From Escherichia coli (GTDB lineage Bacteria > Pseudomonadota > Gammaproteobacteria > Enterobacterales > Enterobacteriaceae), in NCBI RefSeq assembly GCF_003334255.1, contig NZ_QOWU01000014.1: 64,000 nucleotides of DNA; one strand, given 5' to 3'. The notes under the pieces are model-generated. The model was not told where the DNA came from. It saw only the letters and a list, made by a program, of their open reading frames with translations, and searched no databases. A program made the translations under genes and the position numbers. Of this stretch, positions 55,380 to 60,930 are shown in pieces (the first letter of the stretch is position 1; each line of letters begins with the position of its first letter).

Positions 55380-57293
55380 TTACTTACGACCTGCCAGCAG
55401 TTCCAGCACTTCATCCACGCTGGTGGTGTGTGCCAGACGCTCGATGACGGACTCATCATCCAGTGCATTGGTCAGGCTGGTGATAACCTGAATGTGCTCG
55501 TTGTTACGGGCAGCAATACCAATCACCAGACGGGCAATGTCATCTTCTTCTTCACCGAAGCGCACGCCTTCCGGGTACTGGCAGAACACGACGCCCGTTT
55601 TCAGTACGCGATCTTTCGCTTCAACCGTACCGTGTGGCACCGCGATAGACTCACCCAGATAAGTCGGGGTCAGTTTTTCACGATCCAGCATCGCCTGAAC
55701 GTATTCCGGCTCAACGTAACCGCCTTTCACCAGCTGCTCGCCAGCAAAACGAATCGCTTCTTCTTTGGTTGCCGCTTTGCGACCGAGGAAGATGTTCTCC
55801 GCGCCTAGCTTGAACAGGTTAGCACTGGAATCGTCAAAGCTGTCTTTCAGGCTGTCTTTTACTTTCTCTTCGTTTGCCGTGTGGCGTTGGGCAGCAACCA
55901 GACGTTCGGTCAGGCTGGTGTACAGGCCGCTGTCGAGGAAGTTGGTCAGCGAAATATGCTGTGCCTGCGGAACCTGGCGCATAGCGCGTTCGGTCAGGTC
56001 ACGGTGAGTGATGACGAGGTCCACATCTGGCGGCAGGTTGTTGATCGCGCTGTTAGTAACAGAAATCTGCGACAGACCTGCATCCTGAATTTTCTTACGC
56101 AGAACGCCTGCGCCCATCGCACTGGAACCCATACCGGCGTCACAGGCAACGATGATTTTACGTACGTGGCTCAGGTCGTTAGTCACATCGCCAGCAGACA
56201 GCGGAGATGCGCCTTTAGACTCAGCTTTCATGTCCTGCATACGACGAGTTGCTGCTTCAATATCATCTTCTTCTTTCACTTTGCTGGTTTTCAGCAAAAT
56301 AGCAGAGACAACGAAGGAGACAGCCATCGCCGCACACACACCCGCGATGTTAGCGAAGTAAGCACCTTTTGGTGTCATCGCCAGTACAGCAAGGATAGAA
56401 CCCGGAGATGCCGGAGAAACCAGACCACCGCCCAGGATAGTCAGCGTGAACACGCCAGTCATACCGCCGAGGATGACTGCGAGGATCAGACGCGGATTCA
56501 TCAGCACATACGGGAAGTAGATTTCGTGGATACCCCCCAGGAAGTGGATGATTGCCGCACCGCCCGCAGACTGTTTAGCGCTACCACGACCAAAGAACAT
56601 GTACGCCAGCAGCACGCCCATACCTGGACCTGGGTTAGCTTCAATCAGGAAGAAGATTGATTTACCCAGTTCATGGGACTGCTGAATACCCAGCGGCGAG
56701 AAGATACCGTGGTTAATGGCGTTGTTGAGGAACAGGATTTTCGCCGGTTCAACAAAGATAGACGCCAGCGGCAGCATGTCATGGACAACCATGAAGTTAA
56801 CGCCCGCAGCCAGCATTTTGGACAGGGCTTCAACAATCGGGCCAATGCCGAGGAATGCCAGAATAGCGAGGATCATCCCGATGATGCCTGCGGAGAAGTT
56901 ATTCACCAGCATCTCAAAACCGGATTTGATCTTACCGTCTACCCAGCGGTCGAAGTGCTTAATGCACCAGCCGCCCAGCGGACCTGCAATCATAGAACCG
57001 AGGAACATCGGCATGTCTGCGCCGACGATAACGCCCATGGTGGTGATGGCACCGACTACGCCGCCACGTTCGCCGCCTACCAGCTTACCACCGGTATAAC
57101 CGATCAGCAGCGGCAGGAGATAAGTGATCATCGGCCCGACCAGCTTCGCCAGCGTCTCGTTCGGTAACCACCCTGTTGGAATAAATAACGCGGTGATGAT
57201 ACCCCACGCGATAAACGCGCCGATATTTGGCATCACCATGTTGCTGAGGAAACGACCAAAGCTTTGCACTTTGATCTTAATATCGGATGACAT
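55380..57293 (-). CDS. mtlA: PTS mannitol-specific EIICBA component
   Basis: 637 aa [39 protein letters not shown]. Confidence 0.95.
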
Positions 57294-57436
57294 AAAAACA
57301 CCCCTTCTTATGTTTGCTGTCGCGCAGGCTGGAAGCCCGAGGTTTTTTGTTAATGTGGCGGCAGAGGTAGCCGGACCTTGTAGATACTGCGAAATCTGGC
57401 ACTGAATCGGTTAACTGTCCAGTCGACGGCCTTTTG

Positions 57437-57613
57437 TGTGATATCAATCACATAAATATAGGGGGTAGAGAGGTAATTGACGTGACGTTCATCACAAAAC
57501 GCTTGTGTAAAAAAGCAACAAGGCGGCGATTTTCGCTAAAAATGGCATTTAAATGTGAGTAGTGTCACATTTTTGTTTTGATGGTTTGTTGAATCTTTGT
57601 GATCTGAATCACA
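57437..57613. promoter_or_regulatory. array of four CRP-type palindromes upstream of mtlA
   Basis: TGTGA-N6-TCACA at about 57437-57452, 57481-57496 (CGTGA half-site), 57554-57569 and 57598-57613, plus a half-site near 57641; coordinates +/-2 bp. Confidence 0.65.
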
Positions 57614-57829
57614 AGATATTTTCTTACGGCGTTCACCTGATGTGATCTACAGCATGTTATGCCTTCGTCATACAATCGTTATGTAACTAAGCAACTCATC
57701 ACCTCTAAAAATTATTCTTTGGTGTTATGGCGAGAATCGCGAACCCGGATTATTGTCAAAATATCAGCCTGACTCCCTTCTGGCTGCCAGCCCAAAAACA
57801 ACACTGATAAACGTGAATCCGAGGCAGAT

Positions 57830-58192
57830 ATGTTTCTAAACTATTTCGCGTTGGGAGTGCTGATCTTCGTCTTTCTGGTGATTTTTTATGGAATCATCGC
57901 GATACATGACATCCCTTATCTGATTGCCAAAAAGCGCAACCATCCCCATGCCGACGCTATTCATACGGCGGGCTGGGTGAGCCTGTTTACTCTGCATGTT
58001 ATCTGGCCGTTTCTGTGGATCTGGGCGACGCTCTATCAACCGGAGCGTGGCTGGGGTATGCAGTCACATGTTGCGTCGCAGGAGAAAGCGACTGACCCGG
58101 AAATCGCCGCACTTTCTGACCGAATTTCCCGGCTGGAGCATCAACTCGCCGCCGAGAAAAAGACTGACTATTCCACGTTCCCGGAGATCTAA
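57830..58192 (+). CDS. yibI: DUF3302 small inner membrane protein
   Basis: 120 aa with two N-terminal TM helices; divergent from mtlA. Confidence 0.85.
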
Positions 58193-58194
58193 TT

Positions 58195-59331
58195 ATGGAT
58201 CTATTGATTGTTTTAACTTACGTGGCGCTGGCGTGGGCGGTCTTTAAAATCTTCCGCATTCCGGTAAATCAGTGGACGCTGGCGACGGCGGCGCTGGGAG
58301 GCGTGTTTCTGGTGAGTGGTTTGATTTTGTTGATGAACTACAACCACCCTTACACTTTTACCGCGCAAAAGGCAGTGATAGCGATCCCTATCACGCCACA
58401 GGTGACGGGAATTGTTACTGAAGTCACTGACAAGAATAATCAGCTTATTCAAAAGGGCGAGGTGCTTTTTAAGCTCGACCCGGTTCGTTACCAGGCGCGA
58501 GTTGACAGACTTCAGGCTGACCTGATGACGGCGACGCATAATATAAAGACGCTGCGTGCGCAGCTCACTGAAGCGCAGGCCAACACCACCCAGGTTTCAG
58601 CGGAGCGCGACCGTCTGTTTAAAAATTATCAACGTTACTTGAAAGGCAGCCAGGCGGCGGTGAATCCGTTCTCGGAACGTGACATCGACGATGCGCGGCA
58701 AAATTTCCTCGCGCAGGATGCGCTGGTGAAAGGCTCGGTGGCGGAGCAGGCGCAGATCCAGAGCCAGCTCGACAGTATGGTTAACGGCGAGCAATCGCAG
58801 ATTGTGAGCTTAAGAGCGCAACTTACTGAAGCAAAATATAACCTTGAGCAGACTGTCATTCGCGCGCCGAGCAATGGCTACGTTACTCAGGTACTGATCC
58901 GCCCAGGTACATACGCAGCTGCCTTGCCGCTGCGTCCGGTGATGGTCTTCATCCCCGAGCAAAAACGGCAAATTGTCGCCCAATTTCGGCAAAACTCGCT
59001 GTTACGTCTGAAACCCGGCGATGATGCGGAAGTGGTGTTTAACGCGCTACCTGGGCAGGTGTTTCACGGCAAACTGACTAGTATTTTACCTGTCGTGCTA
59101 GGCGGTTCTTATCAGGCGCAGGGGGTATTGCAATCATTAACGGTCGTGCCCGGCACGGACGGTGTGCTGGGAACCATTGAACTGGACCCTAACGATGATA
59201 TCGATGCCTTACCCGACGGCATCTACGCCCAGGTGGCGGTTTACTCCGACCATTTCAGCCATGTTTCGGTGATGCGGAAAGTGCTGCTAAGAATGACCAG
59301 CTGGATGCATTATCTTTATTTGGATCATTGA
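58195..59331 (+). CDS. yibH: HlyD-family membrane fusion protein
   Basis: 378 aa with N-terminal TM and coiled-coil; 3 bp after yibI. Confidence 0.85.
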
Positions 59332-59790
59332 GGGGGAGGGGGGAGATTATGGAACTTTGCTCCTTGTAAGGACTAATTATTTTTGCATATTACTTCATTA
59401 GCTGCGATGATTTTTCTTTAATATTCATTATGTTAATAAGTTCTGGATGAGTGTGCTCTCATTGGATTTTTTATCCGTCTTGTTCTGCCGCAGGATGAGA
59501 CTATACATCGTCGAGATCGCAATGATGATATGAGTTGTTCCTCCTGCGACGGCTCTAATCAAAAAAGAGCAGGAGTGCTTTTCCATCTATTGCGATGATG
59601 GCTTTATTATCTGAAGGATGACAGTCACATTTAAAAAATATTTAATCTATAGATCACAATGTAGGGTCATGGAATATATGTATACAACTATTTTCTTCTT
59701 CACTTTTAATTATCGTATTCATTATAAAACTAAGTTAAAAAAACTCCTGGAGAGTGAGTTATTAATATATTTTTAAATAAAATTAAGTTA

Positions 59791-60228
59791 TCATTCATCG
59801 ATGCACTTTATAGAATCATCAATGGCCATAATAGTACTATTAACTCTCAATTTTATATTTTTATCATCACTACAAATATTAACTGAATTTATATCAATGA
59901 TTTTTTTATTCTTATCTTTTATTTTATTTACTGTTTCAATGCAATCAGCGGCAAGTTGGAGTGGATTTAGATTTTTCAGATATGGTCTTATGATCTTTCC
60001 CTTACTTAATAAATAGCATGTATAGGATTCGGAAAGTCCAGCATCTATTTTGTACCTCATTATATTAGATAAGGATGTGAGAAATTCCTTGTTATCATTC
60101 GCAGCCATATATGCCAGTCCGAGTTCAGCCTCTGCGGCCTTACAGGCAAAATAGCTTAGTGAACACGCTTTTCGTCCCTCTTTAGTACTGGCTGATATTA
60201 GTGCCCATAATATTGCTTTGTCTGCCAA
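59791..60228 (-). CDS. hypothetical protein, possible immunity gene of the decayed rhs module
   Basis: 145-aa AT-rich ORF immediately downstream of the rhs remnant; TTG start in track, first in-frame ATG is 40 codons in; weak Sel1-like segment KAAEAELGLAYMAAND. Confidence 0.35.
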   Translation of the reverse strand: MADKAILWALISASTKEGRKACSLSYFACKAAEAELGLAYMAANDNKEFLTSLSNIMRYKIDAGLSESYTCYLLSKGKIIRPYLKNLNPLQLAADCIETVNKIKDKNKKIIDINSVNICSDDKNIKLRVNSTIMAIDDSIKCIDE

Positions 60229-60316
60229 ATCTAACTCTCTCTGAAATTGTCTTGCAGTAACTGCACTCGCAGAAATAGAGAAAAAAATACAATTGTTAAT
60301 AATCTTGCCATATTTT

Positions 60317-60930
60317 TTAGTCCGTAACTGTTAATGTGCTATCTGGCTCTGAAAATATTAACTCATTTAATTTTTGCATGTCATTAGATAAACCAGTTAT
60401 ACAACCCTCGGAACAGAATCGAGGTCCTAAAGACGGACCAAAAGCGTTTAAACAACTATGTATTGAAAATCCATTGCGATTATAAGTTCCTGTATTAACT
60501 GACGGTACTAATCGTATGCCGTCAGGTTTTCTATTGCTTGCTCCCGGGTCATTAACATTCCAACTCCATAGGCCTTGAGGTATTGGCCATCTATTTATAA
60601 ATGTGTACAACGGGGATTATTTTTACATTGCATATTATTACCAGAAGCGACTGGAATACTAAGCACATCATAAAAATTATCATCACATGGTATATCTGAA
60701 ACACACGAAAGCATACCTAAAGTTATGCTGTATAAACAGGTGGCTAATCCCAAGGGGATCGATTCCAGAAATCGGGTTCAACGGATACTGATAAAAATTC
60801 CACCTACCTTCCAGCCCAATCGGAGCCTGAGTGTTATACCGCCCCTGCTGCGGTTAATGTTACCGATAATAGTTATAGTACAGCCCTGATTCATCATCAT
60901 ACTACTGCTGCGGCAGTCTGATGAACTATT
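60317..60930 (-). pseudogene. decayed orphan rhs C-terminal fragment (frameshifted)
   Basis: 60750-60930 encodes a degenerate Rhs core end ([32 protein letters not shown]) that hits a stop near 60600, while a 97-aa ORF 60317-60610 continues in another frame. Confidence 0.55.

Follow-up and report, generated by a model that had tools for sequence, protein, structure and literature searches.

The closest described relatives of the DNA considered here are of two kinds. The first are the H-repeats (H-rpt, or ISEc1-like elements), which are insertion sequences (ISs) of the ISAs1 family, with ydcC, yhhI and ybfD among their representatives. The second are the arrays of orphan toxin and immunity modules, or Rhs C-terminal tips, of the Rhs elements. 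Zhao et al., in 1993, reportedly described H-rpt as following the Rhs core and the orphan modules, with its orientation matching theirs and with AT-rich DNA specific to each element in between. The same work is said to have given its length as 1,291 bp, which agrees with the copy measured here (L008). To our knowledge, the classical description assigns H-rpt to RhsB, RhsC and RhsE, and not to RhsA. Defective copies are also known: three lie in tandem in RhsC, and a 291-bp fragment lies near min 5 of K-12.

The window is the whole 64-kb stretch of Escherichia coli DNA that was analysed. Its genes were assigned from a list of open reading frames (ORFs) and from the RefSeq annotation of genomes that are 99.8-100% identical to it over the region of interest. 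That region is a 459-bp gap (59332-59790) between the convergent stop codons of yibH on the plus strand and an Imm57-family immunity gene on the minus strand; its K-12 counterpart is NZ_CP169569.1 3699935-3700393. On the yibH side lie mtlA (55380-57293, minus strand), yibI (57830-58192, plus) and yibH, of the HlyD family (58195-59331, plus). In the window, yibH is an intact ORF of 378 codons, and its TGA stop codon (59329-59331) supplies the final bases of the core genome ahead of the island junction. The divergent mtlA and yibI are separated by 536 bp (57294-57829) that are 97% identical to isolate 648. In strain E2865 (L002 4934-6000), yibH is annotated as frameshifted, although the gap there is 100% identical to that of the window.

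On the other side of the gap, the minus strand carries the frameshifted Imm57 gene (59791-60312; yibV/yibU in K-12), as annotated by PGAP in the 99.8-100% identical genomes. It is followed by remnants of a Tlde1-type toxin and fragments of rhs core, yibG, a partial rhs and yibA, while rhsA itself lies outside the window, past its end. The original prediction had described an AT-rich interval of about 460 bp between yibH and the rhs modules, and this is what is found: the gap has a GC content of 33%, against 53% for yibH, and every feature that had been reported in it lies where it was placed. GC content falls from about 55% to 20-45% at 59332, and within the gap it is 41% over 59332-59395, 40% over 59396-59628 and 20% over 59629-59790.

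Taken together, the observations argue strongly that the gap is the distal, non-functional tail of the RhsA island, made up largely of a broken ISAs1-family (H-repeat) IS, and that it is very probably not a new gene or RNA. The relic resembles the H-rpt/ISEc1 elements in its sequence, with 77% nucleotide and about 60% protein homology over transposase residues 95-172, and in a right terminal repeat and stop-codon region that are still recognisable. It also resembles them in position, as it comes after the Rhs core and its orphan modules, points the same way and is set apart from them by element-specific AT-rich DNA. Unlike an intact H-rpt, it retains only about 270 of 1,291 bp in recognisable form, has an internal deletion of about 570 bp, and shows no detectable 5' end or left repeat. 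Unlike a functional one, it contains a stop codon and a frameshift and cannot transpose. Its divergence also far exceeds that of the other copies in the comparison. It is thus a relic; a functional member of the family would span about 1.3 kb and keep its transposase frame open.

Compared with the defective H-rpt copies described for RhsC and min 5, the relic is likewise an internally deleted and interrupted ISAs1 remnant, as is a copy in Escherichia sp. MOD1-EC7003. It differs from the RhsC and min 5 copies in its deletion end points and in forming the very edge of an island, at a core stop codon. The gap also shares features with orphan toxin and immunity arrays. It is the end of such an array (rhsA, yibA, partial rhs, yibG, partial rhs/Tlde1, Imm57), has a low GC content and follows the same pattern of presence and absence; unlike these arrays, it yielded no match to Rhs core, toxin or immunity sequences. 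Both the IS family of the relic and the island that contains it are well known. The relic itself is not described in the searchable literature on yibU, yibV and H-rpt, a scope outside which the original RhsA papers fall.

Comparison across 5,426 complete E. coli genomes places the gap outside the core genome. Used as a megablast query, it was found in 3,726 of them, always on the chromosome and nearly always as a single copy, and it is unannotated in every record among the matches listed. The end of yibH is present in 5,405 genomes, of which only 3,670 match a longer query (the 3' end of yibH, the gap and Imm57) throughout. In the remaining genomes, approximately 1,700, the match stops at query position 601, which corresponds to window position 59332, one base beyond the yibH stop codon. 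Because the match of island-free genomes ends there, the whole gap is island-side DNA, and its left edge is the junction between island and core (59332/59333).

Empty sites have the same organisation in UTI89 and in an O145 strain. In both, yibF follows 70 bp after yibH and is itself followed by selA-selB, and neither the gap nor Imm57 is present. In K-12-type genomes, the entire rhsA element lies between yibF and yibH. The island has taken the place of the 32 bp with which the empty-site spacer begins behind the yibH stop codon, and the common sequence restarts at GCCATACTGATATTTT, just upstream of yibF. The RhsA island occupies this position in about two thirds of E. coli genomes, and the gap is present or absent as a block with the rhsA modules. 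Imm57, the last orphan module of the RhsA element, is almost always its companion: the two occur together in 3,670 genomes, compared with 3,685 for the gap. The inspected exceptions are IS1 insertions with adjacent deletions.

The original prediction had suggested that the gap might be an island boundary and had proposed a comparison with strains lacking the rhs tail. It had also named conservation of the gap in genomes without rhs modules as the observation that would speak against it. The comparison identifies the boundary as the left edge of the gap, since empty-site genomes match only up to 59332 and reach yibF 70 bp on in UTI89 and the O145 strain; genomes without rhs modules do not have the gap.

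The junction has also been the site of other rearrangements. Strains Z142-3 (L007 4288-5041) and 2018-01-1CC (L014 3001-4131) carry IS1 insertions inside the gap, at window positions 59715/59716 and 59749/59750. One IS1-linked deletion removes the region from mid-yibH to 59749, and the other removes every orphan module between 59716 and rhsA. In 70 E. coli genomes, a different island of about 10.3 kb lies between yibH and yibF (L005, L017; NZ_CM136157.1 3246739-3257167). It encodes an AraC-like HTH regulator, a fimbrial operon and an S6-family peptidase autotransporter. This island keeps GGGGGAAGGGG directly after the yibH stop codon (L005 6601-6611, equivalent to window 59332-59342) and then diverges, while on its yibF side a version of the empty-site spacer with about 70% similarity is kept. 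The GGGGGAAGGGG of this island is identical to the G-tract haplotype of strain GF66.1, and the shared sequence suggests either that an RhsA-type tail was replaced or that the joint was reused. Three PLSDB plasmid records also contain the chromosomal yibH-rhsA junction: NZ_OL790696.1 (4.8 Mb), CP061233.1 (1.0 Mb) and CP088525.1 (20 kb). They are probably mislabelled chromosomes or assembly fragments. CP088525.1 contains many 1-bp indels, which are typical of uncorrected long reads.

The largest recognisable part of the relic (59396-59628) lies on the minus strand and derives from the interior of an ISAs1-family transposase gene, as detected by blastn, tblastn, NCBIfam and Pfam. It corresponds to IS positions 661-428 and to transposase residues ~95-172, where the DDE domain begins and the IAIDGK motif lies. 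In blastn and local alignment, it is 77% identical over 235 columns (E ~4e-50) to three independent ISAs1 copies. Its matches are ISAs1-type genes (ydcC/ISEc1, ybfD and others) in thousands of genomes, at a median of five places per genome, and further family members occur in plasmid records. In tblastn with YdcC, residues 96-123 and 124-159 align in two different frames (E 2e-13). A TAG stop codon lies at 59557-59555, and a 1-bp insertion near 59544 shifts the frame, so that the reconstructed translation of the relic contains an in-frame stop (DCHPSDNKAIIAIDGKALLLFFD*SRRR / GTTHIIIAISTMYSLILRQNKTDKKSNESTLIQNLL).

Family assignment of the reconstructed peptide is consistent across searches. 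It matches the NCBIfam profile NF033564, ‘ISAs1 family transposase’, with an E-value of 9.6e-16 and 57.8 bits. The match covers only 75 of the 314 positions of the profile, which is why its score falls short of the 70 bits required for a whole protein. It also matches Pfam DDE_Tnp_1 (E 3.8e-4). An exhaustive search of 1.84 billion representative proteins returned ISAs1-type transposases only, together with ORF calls from the same relic, and the best full-length match had 62% identity. A word-indexed protein search returned only ORFs called in the same relic. The DNA is thus ISAs1-type DDE transposase coding sequence, as a fragment only. The original prediction had offered a decayed gene as its other alternative, and this segment is a pseudogene of just that kind. 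The decayed gene is an IS transposase and not an rhs module. Both alternatives, island boundary and decayed gene, are therefore supported.

A second and shorter piece of the IS adjoins yibH. As the intact reference, the ydcC element was used (L008 1871-3161), with its ends set by the terminal repeats CAGGG...CCCTG. It is 1,291 bp long, and its terminal repeats read CAGGGAAAGATCACG... and CAGGGCAAGATTACG...; three IS copies from different contexts begin to align with each other exactly at (G)CAGGG. Local alignment to the extreme IS end identifies 59337-59374 (minus strand) as a decayed right terminus, equivalent to IS positions ~1291-1253, the last ~39 bp. It comprises the terminal inverted repeat together with the end of the transposase gene, namely its final codons and its stop codon (59347-59349). 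Over 59339-59374, the sequence is colinear with, and on the same strand as, IS positions 1253-1289, with 25 of 36 positions identical and the mismatches mostly C-to-T. The terminal repeat CAGGGAAAGATTA reads AGGGGGGAGATTA in the window; over the terminus, isolate 648 has CTCCCTGCAAGGAC, the window CTCCTTGTAAGGAC and the IS CTCCCCGCAAGGAC.

Support for this 38-bp terminal piece differs between haplotypes. With the window sequence, the alignment score was reached by 2-5 of 300 shuffles against the whole IS and, when the target was its final 200 nt, by 1 of 1000. With the less decayed haplotype of isolate 648, it was reached by 0 of 1000 shuffles against the whole IS. In the window's own haplotype, the homology is modest. 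In alignments of the gap to the IS, the right terminal repeat is recognisable, if decayed, and no left one was found. The two IS-homologous blocks are joined by 21 bp (59375-59395) that show no significant similarity of their own. This joint stands in place of approximately 590 bp of the IS (positions ~662-1252, residues ~173-370), which amounts to an internal deletion of about 570 bp.

The G-rich tract that the original prediction had noted at the start of the gap is real, and it is not a chance feature. It reads GGGGGAGGGGGGAG, occupies 59332-59345, begins straight after the yibH stop codon, and is found in other haplotypes as GGGGGAAGGGGG and GGGGGGCGGGGG. Segments of 14 nt with at least 12 G were absent from all 1000 dinucleotide shuffles of the gap, and this tract is the only one in the 64-kb window. 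Alignment of the window, the empty site and the IS ends distinguishes five junction bases, GGGGG (59332-59336). The tract is explained as these five G followed by the decayed IS terminus (AGGGGGGAGATTA for CAGGGAAAGATTA). A six-codon mini-ORF, MELCSL* (59350-59370, plus strand), begins 3 nt behind an SD-like GGGGAG within the tract. It looks like a by-product of C-to-T decay, since its ATG is ACG in the intact IS end.

Between the transposase fragment and the immunity gene lies an AT-rich segment of 146 bp (59629-59774; ~20% GC) that is unique to the locus. Local and global alignment with shuffle controls gave no significant similarity to the IS 5' region, no paralogue was found in the fetched sequences with the low-complexity filter off, and sensitive blastn gave no second match in the 5,426 E. 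coli genomes. It could be either IS 5' sequence decayed past recognition or spacer DNA specific to the Rhs element. The last 16 nt of the gap (59775-59790, minus strand) form a 3' flank of Imm57 that is shared with Escherichia sp. MOD1-EC7003. This strain, on a short contig, has the single Imm57 locus outside E. coli that was found when a genome collection was scanned with Imm57.

In MOD1-EC7003, the left terminal repeat of an H-rpt starts directly past this flank, 19 nt after the Imm57 stop codon. Its orientation is the same, and it begins at the very point where similarity to the window's flank is lost (59775/59774). A relative therefore shows, independently, an H-repeat right behind this Imm57 module. 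The MOD1-EC7003 Imm57 is 88% identical (L015 2632-2850). Its H-rpt is internally deleted, with the left repeat and ~90 nt fused straight to transposase codons ~248-285, and the contig ends inside the element.

The immunity and toxin genes next to the gap are also degraded. The Imm57 stop codon is at 59791-59793, and the ORF adjoining the gap is the C-terminal part of the frameshifted gene, which is intact and encodes 173 aa in isolate 648 and GF66.1. The orphan Tlde1-domain toxin (60317-60610, minus strand) is N-terminally truncated to an ORF of 97 aa. In isolate 648 the protein is intact, at 135 aa, and its residues 44-135 share 88% identity with this ORF. An NCBIfam scan of the Imm57 and Tlde1 ORF fragments gave no match, and their identity consequently rests on the PGAP annotation and on similarity to the intact copies. 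With Tlde1 truncated and Imm57 frameshifted, the last toxin/immunity module is dead in the window lineage, as it is in K-12.

Isolate 648, with intact Tlde1 and Imm57, also provides a divergent haplotype against which conservation of the gap can be judged. Identity to the window is 93.9% for the gap, 92.9% for Imm57, 97.5% for yibH, 98.4% for yibI and 97.6% for mtlA. The gap has therefore diverged by 6.1%, much like the neighbouring island gene and above the 2.5% of yibH; it evolves as the island does, and not more slowly. Changes within the transposase fragment were polarised with the IS copies as outgroup. On this basis, 10 are derived in the lineage of the window and K-12, including the 1-bp insertion that shifts the frame, which both isolate 648 and the IS lack, and 5 are derived in isolate 648. 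A further 34 differences from the IS are common to both haplotypes, 16 of them GC-to-AT transitions, and both haplotypes carry stop codons and frameshifts. Retention of the full length in ~3,700 genomes is expected of linked neutral DNA in a clonal island, and is no proof of functionlessness.

Several searches for RNA and transcription signals in the gap returned results at the level of chance. An Rfam scan of 58900-60400 in E-value mode found no known sRNA or cis-regulatory RNA family; the best hits were eukaryotic and archaeal snoRNA and lncRNA models (E at least 1.2), with scores far under the gathering scores. Folding of the whole gap on both strands gave z-scores of -1.3 and -0.3, and a scan for intrinsic terminators gave 0 sites on either strand. 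The inverted repeat that had been noted previously, CTCCTGC (59541-59547) and GCAGGAG (59569-59575), is indeed present, inside the transposase fragment. Significance is another matter: perfect 7-bp inverted repeats with loops of 3-30 nt number 2 in the gap against a shuffle mean of 1.62, 44% of shuffles contain at least 2, and the folding of the hairpin does not stand out from that of shuffles (z = -1.1 and -0.75).

RNA folding also picks out a weak terminator-like hairpin at 59760-59736 of the minus strand, which the Imm57 stop codon precedes by 31 nt. It consists of AACUC-A-CU and AG-GAGUU around the loop CUCC, followed by a U run. Its 7-bp stem is AU-rich and was missed by the terminator scan, and the 66-nt piece that contains it folds at -5.3 kcal/mol (z = 0.1); the sequence is nearly invariant among haplotypes. 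This predicted hairpin could help to end the transcript of the orphan module.

The composition of the gap bears on several other accounts of its origin. The position directly behind yibH and the lack of annotation might suggest ordinary core intergenic DNA, a terminator or promoter spacer of yibH that is independent of the rhs island. This reading has practically no probability and was rejected, as it is already refuted by the empty-site genomes, in which the gap is missing altogether, the match ends at 59332 and yibF follows 70 bp later; nor is a terminator predicted behind yibH with or without the island. That the gap encodes a small protein is scarcely more credible. The original prediction had seen no credible ORF here, and only two ORFs of at least 30 aa exist, both of 52 aa and neither a credible gene. 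Both begin with ATG, and gene callers occasionally call ORFs here in E. coli assemblies, with N-termini that vary with local indels or adjacent insertions. The minus-strand ORF (59428-59586) is, however, a piece of the decayed transposase frame read in one frame, and the plus-strand ORF (59618-59776) loses its frame through deletions of 1 bp in both EDL933 and isolate 648 and has no family match in a profile search.

A more serious alternative, still doubtful but clearly the most probable of those considered, concerns the AT-rich segment. It would make 59629-59774 the 5' untranslated end of the IS, so that 59337-59774 would be one doubly deleted IS copy beginning 16 nt after the Imm57 stop codon. 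An IS-5'-end origin of the 146 nt is plausible because MOD1-EC7003 has an H-repeat right behind Imm57, with its left end at the equivalent of 59775/59774. The segment is also close in length to the IS 5' untranslated region (146 and 144 nt), and its order and orientation are colinear with the two recognised IS blocks. Alignment does not bear this out: globally, the 146 nt against IS positions 1-144 score at the shuffle mean (513 of 1000 shuffles were as good), local alignments are non-significant (201 of 1000 and 55 of 1000), and the left terminus CAGGG is missing. The recognised blocks are 68-77% identical to the IS, and complete loss of signal in DNA adjoining them would need a separate history.

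The remaining alternatives would give the relic a present-day role. A consensus scan finds a promoter-like TTAACT-N18-GATAAT on the minus strand (59738-59709), facing the relic and, beyond it, the 3' end of yibH, and it is the sole such hexamer pair in the 12.4-kb K-12 locus. Shimada et al. 2014 (PMC3946193) include among their constitutive RpoD holoenzyme sites one at 81.20 min, ‘yibV > yibU’, which reads TTAACT-15-GATAAT. The hexamers are the same, and the match may be that K-12 site, although the spacers differ (18 here, 15 in the paper) and the paper puts its site between yibV and yibU. From such a sigma-70 promoter, an RNA could run through the relic, antisense to the 3' end of yibH, as a small RNA or antisense regulator. 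A functional unit of this kind is very unlikely. Promoter-like matches are not enriched in the gap (8, against 5.7 +/- 2.7 in shuffles), no Rfam family or structural signal (z = -0.3) accompanies them, and indels and 6% divergence separate the haplotypes. AT-rich island DNA often binds RNA polymerase non-productively. The match is a lead and not evidence. The published site, bound by RNA polymerase in vitro, may fall in the AT-rich segment, so that some transcription might start inside the gap.

There is, at most, a slight chance that the relic has some activity, either through a transcript from 59738-59709 that affects yibIH or through a G-rich IS terminus that serves as a reused recombination joint. 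The latter is suggested by the 70 genomes with the other fimbrial/autotransporter island, which keep GGGGGAAGGGG behind yibH. If the former were true, a promoter-driven transcript colliding or pairing with the 3' end of the yibIH mRNA would cause yibIH regulation to differ between island-bearing and island-free strains.

The reading of the gap as the decayed tail of the RhsA island can be followed along the minus strand, from the truncated Tlde1 and frameshifted Imm57, through the 16-nt flank and 146 nt of AT-rich DNA, to an ISAs1-family relic in the same orientation. On this reading, an ISAs1-family H-repeat would once have stood at the distal end of RhsA, behind the Tlde1/Imm57 orphan module; an intact copy was presumably present downstream of Imm57. 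It would then have lost its interior (~570 bp) and probably its 5' part. The survivors are transposase codons ~95-172 and ~39 bp at the IS end, which include the terminal inverted repeat, with the 5' third of the 1,291-bp IS either missing or unrecognisable. What is left has acquired a stop codon and a frameshift, besides numerous GC-to-AT substitutions, and appears to be decaying neutrally; the decayed terminus and five G that abut the yibH stop codon form the junction between island and core. The gap would accordingly have no sequence-specific function today and would act, at most, as a passive spacer between two convergent transcription units.

The importance of these findings is modest, and they open no major question. 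They do explain an unannotated 459-bp gap in K-12 and in ~3,700 other complete E. coli genomes, and they place the distal edge of the RhsA island one base past the yibH stop codon. Annotation of the relic as an ISAs1 pseudogene or mobile-element remnant would stop spurious ‘hypothetical proteins’ of 60-90 aa from being called there. For the family as a whole, the relic indicates that RhsA probably once carried a terminal H-repeat IS, like RhsB, RhsC and RhsE, which fits the broader association of this IS with Rhs elements.
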